Shown: positions 5,052 through 9,544 of the stretch, piece by piece
Layout: each line of letters begins with the position of its first letter
Position numbering within the stretch: the first letter of the stretch is position 1
NCBI GenBank assembly: GCA_965214305.1
Contig: OZ243949.1
Location: forward strand, 2,515,962-2,579,961
Source: Pseudomonadales bacterium
GTDB lineage: Bacteria > Pseudomonadota > Gammaproteobacteria > Pseudomonadales > Azotimanducaceae
Length of the DNA stretch: 64,000 nt
Direction: 5' to 3'
Position numbers and translations under genes: made by a program
The notes under the pieces: generated by a model
Seen by the model: only the letters and a program-made list of their open reading frames with translations
Told to the model about the DNA's origin: nothing
Databases searched by the model: none

Positions 5052-5059
5052 AAAAATTT

Positions 5060-5199
5060 GGGAATTATGTAGCAAAATCCGCAAAACCCCATTGTGCATT
5101 TTGCAGAAAGTTTTGGGACCTATATATTCTGCCTGACCACGGCAAAGGTGGTATGATGAGAGCAGTCACAAAACTGGAGGATTCCAGATGACACGTTCA
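5060..5199 (+). promoter_or_regulatory. Portable 5' module copy 1: IS-type 26-nt inverted repeat, sigma70-like promoter, RBS, and ATG ACA CGT TCA
   Basis: 140 nt that match 8011-8150 with 4 mismatches. It contains TTGCAG (5101-5106), a 16-nt spacer, TATATT (5123-5128), GGAGG (5176-5180) and ATG at 5188. Confidence 0.5.
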
Positions 5200-5731
5200 C
5201 CCCCCCCCCCCCCCCCCCCCCCCCCCCCCCCCGCGCGCTAGACTAGCGGCTATCCTGCTGCTGGCACTGCTGGCCAGTCCGGCGATGGCCGAGCAGTGCA
5301 ATGCCTCCCATATCGGCGTATACCAGGGCTTCCCGATGGCGGGCACGCCGGCAGTAGAAGGCACCGTTGGCGGAGTGATCGTCCAGTTCTTCCTGGAAAA
5401 CTGCGACAATTTCGGCAGTTTCGAGACTCCCCGGGAATACCAGATTCCCTTCTGCGCCGAGTTCTTCGACACCACCTCGTGCGACGCCGCCGCCACAAAC
5501 TGCCTGAGCAACCGTGTTGCCGGGGCCAGCGGCCTTCTAGGCACCCGCTGGCAGCCCGCCGCCGGCCACCCGTTCAAGCGGTGCAACATCCTGGACGTGG
5601 CAGAAGGCTTTACGTCTGCCTTGCTAACCCCGCATGAAAACAGTTCCAAGGACGAAGGGGAGAATTCCCTGCACGTCATCATGTACAACCCGACCCGTCA
5701 TCTGCGCATTCCCATTCGGGACAATGACTGA
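5188..5731 (+). CDS. Secreted Cys-containing protein, frameshifted at the poly-C tract (phase-OFF as written)
   Basis: ATG 5188 gives MTRS plus 11 Pro, then TAG at 5239. The +1 frame reads through the tract as P..PRARLAAILLLALLASPAMA/EQCNAS, a signal peptide, and continues to the stop at 5731 (listed ORF 5285..5731). Confidence 0.55.
5200..5232. repeat. Homopolymeric C33 tract
   Basis: There are 33 consecutive C starting at codon 5 of the ORF that begins at ATG 5188. Confidence 0.95.
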
Positions 5732-5780
5732 TTGGGCGCTTGTCGGCACGCTGATTCGGTATTATTAGTTTGATGGAGCA

Positions 5781-6613
5781 CTAGTAACCTTCCGCGCCGT
5801 CTTCTTCAAGCGCCCCGTCAGGCCGTGGAATGGCCGACACAATAAGATTGCCGACGACAATGCCGCCGATCATCGTGTAGACCATCGGTCTTAAGCTACC
5901 GTCATGGAGAAAGCCAGACAAGGCGCCAAGCAGCCCACCCATGAGAAACACGCTGATGCCCATCAGCGATGAAGCGCTGCCGACAAGGCGTTTGAAGCGC
6001 GTCAAGTAGAGGCCGGACACCGCTGGCCCGATCAAACCGTTGACACCCATGGCGAGCGCAAGTAAAGGCGTGAACAAAAGCACCGGAATCTCATCTGCGC
6101 CGAAGACAAGCGCTGCGAACGCGGTGAAGAACAGCAGTTGAATGCCTCGTCCAATGCGAAAAAGCAGCGCAGGCGACAATCGCCGGATCAGGCGCGATGC
6201 GAGCATGGTGAAACACAGCATCGACACGACATTGGCACCAAATAGAACGGGAACATCGCCTCGCCGACTGCGAAATATTCAAGGTAGATAAACGACGAAT
6301 TGGTGATGAACACGAACATCAGACACGACATGCATGCGTTGCCGAGGATGTACATGAGCGGCACCGGCCTGCCTTGAATGCGTCGGGTCAGCACTGAAAC
6401 GTACTGCGGCAGAATCGCGTGCCAGCGAATGTGCCGGCCCGGATTCGGTGCTGTTTCAGGAATCCTCGTGAATGCAATCAGCGCGAACACGCCGTAGAGC
6501 CCGAGAAATACAAAGATCGACTCCCAGCCCAATGGCAGCAGCAAGCTGCCAATCATCGGCGCCAAGAGTGGCGCAATCAGCATGACCACGAAGACGATTG
6601 GAAACTTGCGCAC
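5781..6613 (-). pseudogene. Bcr/CflA-type MFS efflux transporter remnant (N-terminally truncated and frameshifted)
   Basis: Two overlapping ORFs (6188..6613 and 5781..6227) together read like the TM4-TM12 half of a Bcr-family MFS. The first roughly 100 codons are missing. Confidence 0.65.
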
Positions 6614-6616
6614 GGC

Positions 6617-6890
6617 TTCGTGCCTTTTGGCGCACTTGGATTGAGCCTTGCAGGGATCGACGTGTTCTTCGCAATCAACGCACTCGAGCCGGTTGAAACA
6701 CGCGGCGCCATCGCCTTTCTGTATGCGGACGGCACGCCTCGACTGCTCATTGACATCTTCCTTCTTGGCGTGTTCGCCGCCTTCTACGAAGTGCCGCTCT
6801 ATGCCTCCATTCAGGCGCGCACACCGGAGGCGACGAGGGCGCGCGTCATCGCCGCAACCAACATCATCAATGCCTTCTTCATGGTCTTAG
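6617..6890 (+). pseudogene. C-terminal MFS (LplT-like) segment of a transporter-acyltransferase fusion, 5' truncated
   Basis: The TM-like sequence LIDIFLLGVFAAFYEVPLYASIQARTPEATRARVIAATNIINAFFMV is present. The frame breaks at TAG 6888-6890, and the next frame continues directly into the acyltransferase domain. Confidence 0.45.
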
Positions 6891-7016
6891 GGGTCTGTCT
6901 GCGCCATTGTCTGGCTGAGCGTACTCGATCTTTCCATCCCGTCGCTGCTGCTTTCCCTCGCCATCGGCACGCTCGCTGTAGCGGGCTTCATCTTCTACCA
7001 AGTACCTGAGTTCGCG

Positions 7017-7610: not shown

Positions 7611-7630
7611 ACCACACTTCTAGTGTTCCG

Positions 7631-8006
7631 TCACAGTTTAATTTTTGGATAGATGGACTTCAGCTTGCGGCGCGCGTCGTCCACCTCCATGTGCCATTCC
7701 ACGCCCCGCTGGGCGCTGTTCACATCGTCCGCCCACGCCTTGAGCTCCGCCGCAGCGTCCGGATGTCGCCGATGCGGCGGTTCGCGAGGCATTGCCGCGT
7801 CATGCAGCTCAGCTCGCTCTCCGCCACGTTCAGCCAGCTGCCGTGCTTCGGCGTGTGGCAGAACTCGACGCGCCGCGCCAGCGCCCGCGCCGGGTCGGGC
7901 GGCTTCGCGTAGGTCTCCAGCACGTGCTCCATGCCCGCCGCGAACTCCGCGTCGCAGCCCGGCGGAATCACCCAGTACCGGACCTTGCGCCCGGTGACGC
8001 CGTTTT
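7631..8006 (-). pseudogene. IS630-family (DDE_3 type) transposase remnant
   Basis: RKVRYWVIPPGCDAEF...HTPKHGSWLNVAESELS...QRGVEWHMEVDDARRKLKSIYPKI is spread over 2-3 frames. The N-terminus is missing, the catalytic core is deleted and there is a frameshift. The remnant abuts the IR at 8011. Confidence 0.6.
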
Positions 8007-8010
8007 TTTA

Positions 8011-8150
8011 GGGAATTATGTAGCAAAATCCGCAAAACCCCATTGTGCATTTTGCAGAAAGTTTTGGGACCTATATACTCTGCCTGACCACGGCAAAGGT
8101 GGTACGATGAGAGCAGCCACAAAACTGGAGGATTCCAAATGACACGTTCA
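8011..8150 (+). promoter_or_regulatory. Portable 5' module copy 2
   Basis: It matches 5060-5199. It contains TTGCAG 8052-8057, TATACT 8074-8079, a GGAGG RBS and ATG at 8139. Confidence 0.5.
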
Positions 8151-8795
8151 CCCCCCCCCACTAAATTAGCAACCTTCTTGCTGCTAGCAGTGCTTGTGGC
8201 ACCGCTAGCGGCGCAGACGACCGTCACAAGCAGCGGGCGAGACGGCGAGACCGCTTGCATGGGTCAAACTGAGGTCAATGCTGCGAATCTCCCCATCACG
8301 ACCTTAACCTCAAACTTCGGGCTCTACAGCGCTCCGGCTGTCACATGGGGCCAATACACCGGGCGGCTCGGCGATACGACGCCACCTGCAAATGCCACTG
8401 TGTATCACGCTGTTTACAACGCCAGCACAAAGGCAAGTGTGTTCAAAAGTGCAGCTAATCTCGTTAATAGTGAAAACAACTATTCAGGCGAAAGCCAAGC
8501 CCTACCTGGACTGACTGCAAAGACCAACTACTATGTGGAAGTTTACGCGGCTGCGTCAGGATCTATTCCGAAGCAGGTGTTCGCGAGACGCTGCTTCATG
8601 ACCGGCGGCACCTACACCATATCGGCCGAAGCCATCGCTTCAGGCCCAACGGAGGGGTCAACCGGGTGCTTCACGATCAGCCCCCTCACCCAGCAGGATG
8701 TCCGCAACTGCTGGTGCGGGCGCAAGACCACACGGCCCCTGTTCAGCTCAACACAGGACAACACCAACTTCCTGAACAGGTGGGGATGCCGATAA
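8139..8795 (+). CDS. Secreted protein of unknown function with an MTRSPPP leader (C9 tract, in frame)
   Basis: 218 aa. MTRSPPPTKLATFLLLAVLVAPLAAQTT is a signal peptide. The mature part has 6 Cys. Confidence 0.65.
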   Translation: MTRSPPPTKLATFLLLAVLVAPLAAQTTVTSSGRDGETACMGQTEVNAANLPITTLTSNFGLYSAPAVTWGQYTGRLGDTTPPANATVYHAVYNASTKASVFKSAANLVNSENNYSGESQALPGLTAKTNYYVEVYAAASGSIPKQVFARRCFMTGGTYTISAEAIASGPTEGSTGCFTISPLTQQDVRNCWCGRKTTRPLFSSTQDNTNFLNRWGCR

Positions 8796-8849
8796 CGGCC
8801 CCTGCCGGACACGGGCGCGGCGGCATCCGCTCCGCCCCTGTCGTTGCGG

Positions 8850-9281
8850 GCCGCCGCCCCCCGGCGCTGCGCACCAGCGACCCCATGCAGTCGATGGTGT
8901 CGATCAACCCCCTCGCGTACTCGCCATCGCCGTGCCTGACGGCCTCGTGACGATGCCAGTTAATCTCGGCGGACAGTGCCGAGTACGCTACGGCATCGTC
9001 CGTGAAAATGATGGAGCCTTGCTCGGCGGCTGACTCGACGAAGCCCGTCAGGGTGCGGGAATCAACCGCAGCGACGGGCCGCGCCAGTAGGCGTGCCAGC
9101 TCTTGGACTTCGAGACGCGCTCTACGCCGCCGCAGTGCGGGCAGACGGGCTTGCCGCCCCACCGCGCCGACTCAAGCCACTCACAGCATTTGTCGTCGGT
9201 GGAGAAGATGCGGTGCAATTGGGTGATGCTCAGTGTGTCCGCGATCCGCTTTTTGCCGTCCATCCTTTGGACTCCGCTCAT
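8850..9281 (-). pseudogene. IS1595-family transposase remnant (frameshifted, internally deleted)
   Basis: The N-terminal zinc ribbon CEWLESARWGGKPVCPHCGG is in ORF 9048..9281. The ISXO2-like segment IIFTDDAVAYSAL...HEAVRHGDGEYARG.IDTID is in ORF 8743..9162. Confidence 0.6.
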
Positions 9282-9544
9282 TTGCGGATTACCATATCTA
9301 ATTCTTATAAGGGTTTTAAGAGTTCTTTGCGGATTTTGCTACATAATTCCCAAAAATTTCAGGGCGGTAAAGCACCGGTATTGCCAAGCTTGGCAGAAGT
9401 CGGCTTGCGGCAACCGGTGTGCATCATGTTTCCGTTTTGTCACAAAGACGACACGCTTTTGTCATATATCCGTACTAACTTGCTCGCCGGATTTACGGGC
9501 TGCCATGCGCGCCCTGATCTACACCATTTTTTCCGGGGAACTTC

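Follow-up and report, generated by a model that had tools for sequence, protein, structure and literature searches.

A 4.3-kb block on IS1595-type ends, probably a non-autonomous compound transposable unit, with two secreted-protein genes that carry poly-C tracts

How did a 4.3-kb block of gene remnants and secreted-protein genes come to lie between the ends of one type of insertion sequence (IS)? The question is raised by positions 5060–9351 of a 64,000-nt stretch of a Pseudomonadales chromosome (contig OZ243949.1), the whole of which is referred to as the window. A preliminary description of this block had proposed either an IS with passenger genes or a composite transposon, bounded by IS1595-type inverted repeats (IRs) with matching 8-bp flanks. 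The evidence presented below argues that the block is probably a non-autonomous compound transposable unit built on IS1595-family ends, which moved into the octamer AAAAATTT as a whole. It possesses two directly oriented left ends and a single right end, was most likely mobilised by a transposase acting in trans, and is now immobile on its own. The likely payload consists of two signal-peptide-bearing proteins of predicted beta-sandwich fold, encoded by genes A and B, whose 5′ poly-C tracts should switch them by slippage.

Ends of the block and its target site

The 26-mer GGGAATTATGTAGCAAAATCCGCAAA is present exactly at all three places previously reported for it, starting at 5060 and 8011 on the plus strand and ending as a reverse complement at 9351 (Table 1), with 0 expected in 100 shuffles. 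Its assignment as an IS terminal repeat also held. A scan with a 20-nt stretch of the IR, in which each species was represented by one genome, yielded 49 loci (loci in other genomes carry the prefix L), and the same termini bound intact elements at L016, L004, L026 and L011. The outer flanks of the block, read directly from the sequence, are identical, both being AAAAATTT, whereas the left flank of the inner IR at 8011 reads TTTTTTTA; on both points the earlier account was correct. The direct repeat extends beyond the 26-mer reported before: over 152 nt (5057–5208 and 8008–8159, 97% identical), it takes in the IR and 102 nt of leader, and continues through the codons ATG ACA CGT TCA into a poly-C run.

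A chance match of the octamers in an AT-rich junction had been raised as a real possibility. According to a position matrix derived from 55 flanks in other genomes (81% A+T), an 8/8 flank match between two independent insertions of this IS would arise with a chance of ~2e-4. Furthermore, cross-locus 8/8 matches within the 55-flank set were confined to one contig or one metagenome-assembled genome (MAG), and these are probably true duplications. Given this estimate, the AAAAATTT match at the outer ends is not due to chance, and the target site duplication (TSD) is real. An interpretation of AAAAATTT as an extension of the IR was rejected, as flanks vary between copies and the duplications are direct, not inverted.

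The same octamer also stands to the left of an adjacent 89-nt miniature inverted-repeat transposable element (MITE), and additionally at 4912. It had been pointed out that the octamer is the duplication of that MITE as well, which is true, but this represents a second genuine 8-bp TSD event: a sister MITE at 4463–4552 is flanked by TAGTGATA on both sides, from which it follows that the MITE makes 8-bp TSDs too. The three tandem copies of AAAAATTT are thus the residue of two successive insertions into one octamer. Members of this ~90-nt MITE family, with GG termini (GGTAGTGGCTCA...) and the TSDs TAGTGATA and AAAAATTT, lie at 4463–4552, 4963–5051, ~27534–27623 and ~46042–46059, and one of them uses the same target octamer as the 4.3-kb unit.

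A relative with an unoccupied site was found through the window AceK gene (2279–4042), whose product is 77% identical to that of the next-best relative. The contig of this relative, L050, is syntenic with window positions 1–23.5 kb at ~78% nucleotide identity, and in it the 93-residue-protein gene and the beta-helix gene, which flank the insertion in the window, are adjacent. The gap between the last alignable blocks measures 154 nt in L050 and 4554 nt in the window; when the MITE (97 nt including one TSD copy) and the unit (4300 nt, likewise including one TSD copy) are taken off the latter figure, 157 nt remain. Alignment to L050 resumes directly after the TSD (GGGCGGTAAAGC). Because of the matching spacing and the resumed alignment, the block appears to be a clean insertion, by which no host DNA was lost or inverted. 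An unoccupied site would be expected to read ...CCCGAAAAAAATTTCAGGGCGG, with or without the MITE. Exact-protein look-ups with the 93-residue protein, the gene B product and AceK (P0001) found no conspecific genome. The outer TSD and the empty site, the latter in a relative only ~78% identical, largely support the earlier claim that the whole block moved or was assembled as a unit; its movement in one step is a matter of weighing alternatives, and is taken up below.

Several observations concern the surroundings of the insertion and other parts of the window. Between AceK and the first MITE, a minus-strand open reading frame (ORF; 4068–4388, 106 aa) contains three tandem 54-nt repeats at 4131–4292 with 76–81% identity, encoding an 18-residue repeat (..DHADFKSDIGKRIDDLKK..); the corresponding interval is ~240 nt long in L050 and ~570 nt in the window. 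On the other side, the adjoining secreted beta-helix protein (9545–13399, 1284 aa) has long internal duplications with identical runs of several hundred residues, and its L050 counterpart (Pfam Beta_helix_4) has 1052 aa. A fourth IR copy, GGGCATTATGTAGCAAAATCCGCAGA, with two mismatches and absent from the earlier list, occurs at 29000–29025 on the plus strand of the window. It has an AT-rich flank, CTTTAATT; by eye, the end of a plus-strand ORF precedes it and an unrelated minus-strand coding sequence follows. Since no partner IR lies nearby, this solo IR is read as the truncated remainder of a second insertion by this IS group in the genome.

The B element, the cargo and the assembly of the unit

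The right arm of the block (8011–9351), here called the B element, is a separate element. Copies 97% identical to it, with their own TSD TTTCAATT, occur at L027, L056 and L057 in the Candidatus Azotimanducus lineage. The transposase remnant that it holds retains a zinc ribbon (PF12760, 36.2 bits against a cut-off of 25.4, 9048–9281, minus strand) and a fragment of DDE_Tnp_IS1595 (PF12762, 27.2 bits against a cut-off of 27, profile positions 48–110 of 153, 8743–9162, minus strand). An internal deletion has removed about 116 residues, and ~70 more are lost from the C-terminus; the enzyme is dead, and any movement would have needed a helper. The Azotimanducus copies share these deletions at an unrelated site. 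The B element is thus mobile on its own and moved after its decay, presumably with a helper transposase.

From nt ~49 to 861 the B element is 77% identical to L055, an IR-less B-family gene on an Azotimanducus chromosome. Leader and MTRSPPPPPP start recur in L055, the leader from ~nt 49 being 83% alike. As the leader is present there without an IR, only the 26–33-nt IR at the left end is derived from the IS, and the leader and promoter belong to the captured gene itself. The idea that the ~130-nt leader is part of the IS was rejected: the IR-less B-family gene has it, and the intact relatives lack it. The B element is an IS with a gutted transposase; the place of its distal half has been taken by a captured secreted-protein gene, which brought along its promoter, leader and poly-C tract. 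The preliminary description had placed the secreted-protein genes just inside the IRs, as passengers would be, and had assumed two IS ends bracketing the block. Positions and IRs were both correct, but the "MTRSPPP" leader does not belong to the IS and represents the promoter region of a captured gene; on the left there is no IS, only a solo IR and a captured B-family leader fused to gene A.

This fusion took place in a homopolymer. The gene A locus of L051, part of a 2.42-Mb circular contig of the Azotimanducus lineage, has a different start (MNTLHN) ahead of its own run of 29 C. Since this start differs, and since both homology limits lie inside the 33-C run (Table 1), the IR and leader appear to have been joined to gene A by recombination within homopolymers. 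The remaining contents listed earlier (Bcr, LplT-acyltransferase, IS630 and transposase remnants, besides genes A and B) were confirmed by Pfam and NCBIfam, with matches to Bcr at 5781–6613 (minus strand), LplT-acyltransferase at 6419–7610 (plus strand) and the IS630 C-terminal part at 7720–7971 (minus strand); genes A and B matched no family. The inner IR does cut an IS630 transposase, of which the C-terminal part alone remains (junction GACGCCGTTTTTTTAGGGAATTATG), and the octamer TTTTTTTA, having no partner at 9352, is an old B-element target within that IS630. No Rfam family was detected in 4000–10000 and no tRNA in 1–16000, the latter arguing against a tRNA-linked integration.

In L051 the LplT-acyltransferase (627 aa), gene A and a Bcr-type major facilitator superfamily (MFS) transporter (414 aa) are intact. 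Window positions 5206–6623 are 97.7% identical to L051 4922–6340, and positions 6613–7618 are 96.2% identical to L051 2412–3416. The genome of L051 also has the B element at the Azotimanducus site, with flanks there 99.4% identical to L056. Among the best 120 matches to the window AceK (down to ~54% identity), no AceK of the Azotimanducus lineage was found. Because the host is thus distant from that lineage and the cargo is nevertheless 96–98% identical, the cargo (5206–7618) was, as far as such comparisons can tell, imported from the Azotimanducus lineage, like the B element. The permuted joint between L051-type positions 6340 and 2412 (CACGGCTTCGTGCCTTTTGG), with its microhomology, looks like the signature of a tandem-duplication or circle junction.

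These features can be accommodated by a sequence of four steps. In an Azotimanducus-like donor, a B element would have inserted into an IS630 that directly followed LplT. Microhomology would then have mediated a tandem duplication or a circle, by which Bcr was linked to LplT, and poly-C-to-poly-C recombination would have set one IR with its leader before gene A. Finally, a related transposase acting in trans would have used the outermost IRs (5060 and 9351) to insert the 4.3 kb into AAAAATTT, an AT-rich octamer between the 93-residue-protein gene and the beta-helix gene, which was thereby duplicated. The transposed stretch would extend from that IR through the distal IR of the next B element, and a single import would explain both B element and cargo.

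Several points weigh against this movement as one unit. No second 4.3-kb unit with a different TSD was found. Scans of metagenomes for the leader with poly-C and of viral sequences for the IR gave nothing, and the 11 loci retrieved from metagenomes with the IR bear no relation to the interior of the unit. The single region available from an Azotimanducus-lineage genome did not show the donor layout, which would combine a B element in IS630 beside LplT with the Bcr′–LplT′ joint; B element and gene A are separated by ~350 kb in that genome. No intact helper transposase is present in the 64-kb window, and the left 40 nt of L050 are too diverged for a base-by-base reading of the empty site. Furthermore, the same final structure would arise if a circle integrated homologously into a resident B element.

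The last point leads to the most serious alternative, an assembly in situ, which we nevertheless hold to be unlikely. The 1.34-kb B element alone would have transposed into AAAAATTT and made the TSD; a circle of poly-C, gene A, the Bcr′–LplT′ joint, IS630′, TTTTTTTA, IR and leader would then have integrated by a Campbell-type crossover in the 152-nt repeat. This scheme explains the TSD, the empty site of the relative and the foreign cargo as well as transposition of the unit does. The B element is demonstrably mobile alone, the 152-nt repeats are in direct orientation, as Campbell integration leaves them, and the cargo is circularly permuted relative to the donor region, as a circle would give. 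Against it, two separate imports from the Azotimanducus lineage would be needed, first of the B element and then of the circle, and a non-replicating circle would have to recombine through only ~150 nt of homology at 97%. The circle would also require the IS630′–TTTTTTTA–IR joint beforehand, so that the donor must in any case have had a B element next to the cargo. The four differences between the leader copies show no crossover pattern, and these polymorphisms do not separate unit transposition from homologous integration.

Very improbable, in comparison, are two unrelated insertions followed by rearrangement, in which the identity of the AAAAATTT flanks would reflect a preference for A5T3-like octamers, possibly helped by the MITE duplication. 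The IS group does strongly prefer AT-rich 8-mers, as the composition of the flanks above attests, near-identical targets are used at L011 (AAAATTTC) and L026 (TAATTTTT), and AAAAATTT recurs at 4912 and 4955. However, the position-matrix estimate for an 8/8 match is low, the spacing relative to L050 indicates a clean insertion, and everything between the ends is foreign or IS-derived, with no native DNA seen there. Weakest of all, and hardly credible, is a mis-join of an abundant Azotimanducus-lineage genome at the leader and poly-C repeat shared with this metagenome-assembled chromosome: the cargo is 96–98% identical to a co-occurring genome of that lineage (2209x in one sample), the extra 2.95 kb has a repeat at both edges and long homopolymers are error-prone, but the cargo is not collinear with the L051 region, a simple chimera would not create the novel Bcr′–LplT′ joint, two frameshifts, 2–4% divergence and an IS630 fragment absent from L051, and the repeat of just 152 nt is far below long-read length in a source contig that is a 2.83-Mb chromosome.

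Table 1. Features of the block and its target site, with TSDs of related elements and poly-C lengths as they stand in the assemblies
Feature	Position	Strand	Remarks
First AAAAATTT copy, left TSD of MITE	4955–4962		direct reading
89-nt MITE (GGTAGTGGCTCA...TGAGCCACTACC)	4963–5051		8-bp TSDs; outside the unit, same target site
Second AAAAATTT copy, right TSD of MITE and left TSD of 4.3-kb unit	5052–5059		
Outer left IS1595-type terminal IR, solo end	5060–5085	+	same 24–26 nt bound intact L016, L004, L026, L011
Leader and promoter region, common with B element	5086–5187	+	sigma-70-like TTTGCA-17-TATATT at 5100–5128
Gene A	5188–5731	+	ATG ACA CGT TCA, 33 C (5200–5232), signal peptide (RARLAAILLLALLASPAMA/EQ), 146-aa mature part
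Poly-C tract, recombination joint	5200–5232	+	B-element homology stops at 5208; homology to Azotimanducus-lineage gene A starts at 5206
Bcr/CflA MFS transporter remnant	5781–6623	−	98% to L051; truncated; 1-nt deletion at 6242
Illegitimate joint, microhomology GGCnTCG	6613–6623		L051-type 6340 joined to 2412; cargo circularly permuted
LplT-acyltransferase 3′ remnant	6613–7610	+	96.2% to L051 2412–3416; 1-nt insertion at 6890
IS630-family remnant, C-terminal transposase part and end, cut by inner IR	7619–8002	−	
TTTTTTTA, inner-IR flank without partner at 9352	8003–8010		old B-element target inside IS630
Inner left IR	8011–8036	+	exact 26-mer match
B element, 1341-bp non-autonomous IS1595-family derivative with gene B	8011–9351		97% copy with own TSD in Ca. 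Azotimanducus lineage
Gene B	8139–8795	+	218 aa, in frame, 9 C (8151–8159), signal peptide end ...APLAA/QTT
Transposase remnant	8896–9281	−	residues ~1–63 (zinc ribbon) and ~180–242 of ~311 kept
Right IR, common to B element and 4.3-kb unit	9326–9351	−	exact 26-mer match
Third AAAAATTT copy, right TSD of unit	9352–9359		direct reading
L001 element			TSD GTATATTG
L004 element			TSD AAAGATTT
L016 element			TSD AAAAAAAA
L022 element			TSD TAATGAAA
L026 element			TSD TAATTTTT
L011 element			TSD AAAATTTC
Poly-C length, window			gene B 9; gene A 33
Poly-C length, L056 and L027			18 and 20 (same orthologous site, two assemblies; both out of frame)
Poly-C length, L055			19 (in frame)
Poly-C length, other loci			L051 29; L058 17; L059 22; L052 14

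Secreted-protein genes A and B and their poly-C tracts

Both proteins have a typical signal peptide after the proline run encoded by poly-C. The gene A family has 18 members found, 58–93% identical to the query. Its mature part was modelled by AlphaFold2 as an all-beta sandwich with a predicted local distance difference test score (pLDDT) of 77; a Foldseek comparison of this model with the PDB gave nothing significant (best E 0.013, to reeler or immunoglobulin-like adhesin folds). The gene B family is larger, with more than 120 members, which come from sponge-associated MAGs wherever the source is named and often occur several per genome. The gene B model (pLDDT 86) combines a fibronectin type III (FN3)-like sandwich with a conserved Cys-rich C-terminal region, and matched FN3-like PDB structures weakly (best E 5e-4, TM-score ~0.5–0.66 on the target). 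The PDB likenesses of both models would indicate the fold class only.

With 33 C, gene A is out of frame by one C and meets a stop codon at 5239–5241, whereas with 32 or 35 C it would be in frame again; assemblies are prone to error in the length of homopolymers, and this and all other tract lengths are to be taken as assembly figures. Many gene calls in the two families begin at an internal Met, with the frame broken. In several related genomes, too, tracts of 9–33 C sit 4–8 codons into A- and B-family genes. A homopolymer in the 5′ coding region whose length shifts the frame is what characterises a phase-variable locus; the tracts thus fit homopolymer-driven phase variation, and genes A and B are candidate phase-variable genes. 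A literature search on poly-C or phase variation in sponge symbionts gave nothing pertinent.

Further observations concern the exchange of parts among these genes. Gene A (5213–5732) is 98.6–98.8% identical to L058 8934–9448 and L059 9025–9544, where leaders and neighbours are different; this homology starts in poly-C and ends one base past the stop codon, so that its boundaries look cassette-like. P0132 and P0144, both from a 4.0-Mb contig and belonging one to the A and one to the B family, both start with MSFHTIRMFPVAMLAAALA and have unrelated mature domains. In addition, the A-family protein P0136 has a B-type signal peptide (LTKSATFFLLAVLA). Such combinations suggest a shuffling of 5′ modules among A- and B-family proteins.

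A more speculative proposal, which at present seems doubtful, is that in sponge symbionts a poly-C tract after the start codon may serve both as a slippage switch and as a recombination joint that swaps promoter-leader modules among unrelated effector genes and, together with shared IRs, may allow a cross-phylum exchange of mobile cassettes for host-interaction genes. Hints of such a dual role are the switch of homology inside the tract, the limits of gene A homology and the N-terminal modules common to P0132 and P0144.

As an IS finding alone, the block would be ordinary. It also documents a recent gene transfer between distantly related members of a sponge microbiome, for which IS1595-type ends common to Gamma- and Alphaproteobacteria, a Pedosphaera MAG and a Dehalococcoidia MAG are the likely vehicle. 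The payload is neither resistance nor metabolism, but two members of secreted beta-sandwich families that are restricted to sponge symbionts and carry poly-C. If the tracts are real switches and joints, they offer a testable route by which symbionts could diversify and exchange surface or host-interaction proteins.

IS1595-family relatives and comparison with known systems

The named loci from the IR scan belong mostly to sponge-symbiont lineages, among them Ca. Porisulfidus, Ca. Azotimanducus, Arenicellales, Paracoccaceae, Rhodobacter, the Pedosphaera MAG and the Dehalococcoidia MAG. Wherever both ends lay in one locus, a perfect, AT-rich 8-bp TSD was present (L001, L004, L016, L022, L026, L011 and L027), consistent with the 8-bp duplications attributed to this family at the outset. 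The transposase of L016 (1335 bp) is intact, with 315 aa, and has a zinc ribbon and a full DDE_Tnp_IS1595 domain (E 2e-38, Pfam); the transposases of L016, L004, L026 and L011 range from 310 to 325 aa. The closest relative of the window remnant is L011 (3.3 kb), with a similar N-terminus and 72% DNA identity; its transposase ORF of 325 aa is accompanied by a predicted methyltransferase ORF and an ORF of 249 aa. The IS1595 family usually has 8-bp TSDs and a transposase with a zinc finger and a DDE domain (PMC8101967). In the window, IRs, TSD and zinc ribbon all agree with this family, and the DDE domain seems to survive as a fragment only. Even the nearest IS1595 transposases on plasmids fall below 45% identity, on which ground the IS with these ends may be regarded as an unnamed, previously undescribed member of the family, and it appears to circulate among sponge-symbiont bacteria of several phyla.

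Other cargoes were observed on the same ends. A DNA methyltransferase-HNH fusion, accompanied by small ORFs beside the transposase in L004 (2.9 kb) and L026 (3.2 kb), is carried by the intact or nearly intact members L004 2164–5105, L026 3000–6153 and L047 3060–5662, whereas L011 1494–4821 carries its methyltransferase and 249-aa ORFs instead. Judged by their predicted products, these are methylase or restriction-modification-like cargoes on a transporter IS, in keeping with the expectation that some members carry passengers. MTRSPPP-type passengers were found in none of the four intact relatives (L016, L004, L026 and L011). In addition, elements of 1.3 kb with the same IRs have TnpB (412–416 aa; Pfam HTH_OrfB_IS605, OrfB_IS605 and Cas12f1-like_TNB) as their sole gene (L001 70–1366 and L022 4847–6180; TSDs GTATATTG and TAATGAAA, respectively). 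L069 and L070 likewise have paired IRs ~1.29 kb apart, and no IR-adjacent sequence class is more frequent in the 59 listed IR copies than the one found at the TnpB 3′ end. TnpB thus appears to ride as sole cargo of a DDE-type, TSD-making element, which is reminiscent of the capture of Fanzor by eukaryotic DNA transposons; a literature search on TnpB with IS1595 gave nothing relevant.

Passenger-bearing subgroups of the IS1595 family are ISNwi1+ and ISPna2+. The earlier alternative of an IS with passenger genes or a composite transposon is borne out in so far as IS1595 relatives do bear passengers. The window element shares with passenger-bearing IS1595 members the 24–26-nt IRs beginning GG(G), the 8-bp TSDs, the zinc ribbon and DDE_Tnp_IS1595 (intact in L016) and the presence inside of genes unrelated to transposition. 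It differs in that its transposase is destroyed, and in that its passenger replaces the C-terminal part of the transposase in convergent orientation, whereas the passengers of intact relatives lie downstream and are co-directional. Passenger-carrying members have been termed transporter IS (Siguier, Gagnevin & Chandler 2009, as cited in PMC3129680).

The composite part of the alternative did not stand in its strict sense. There are not two IS copies, and only the right arm (8011–9351) is whole, though defective. In compound transposons such as Tn5, Tn10 and Tn9, chromosomal cargo lies between ends of the same IS. The block likewise has chromosomal cargo between IS ends and a TSD only at the outer ends (AAAAATTT), while the inner end keeps its older flank (TTTTTTTA). 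However, its left arm is a solo 26-nt IR with a captured promoter and not an IS copy, both "left" ends are direct, neither arm encodes a working transposase, and no second copy was seen.

The B element by itself resembles a mobile insertion cassette (MIC), as described for MIC231 and IS231 (De Palmenaer et al. 2004, as cited in PMC3129680). Like MIC231/IS231 and MITE-like non-autonomous derivatives, it has IS-type IRs around a non-transposase gene and no functional transposase, and would be mobilised in trans; its one degraded structure is found at two unrelated, independent sites in two lineages. It differs in belonging to another IS family and in still holding a transposase remnant. The poly-C tracts, in turn, recall phase-variable contingency genes with homopolymeric tracts (for a general survey, see PMC2831843), with which they share a long C run a few codons into a gene for a secreted or surface protein, varied lengths and many out-of-frame copies; here, however, the tract is also a recombination joint between unrelated genes, which is not part of the classical description. 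Altogether, what is new relative to these systems is the arrangement of two direct left ends and one right end without a working transposase, the homopolymer capture joint, the class of payload and the cross-phylum spread in sponge microbiomes.

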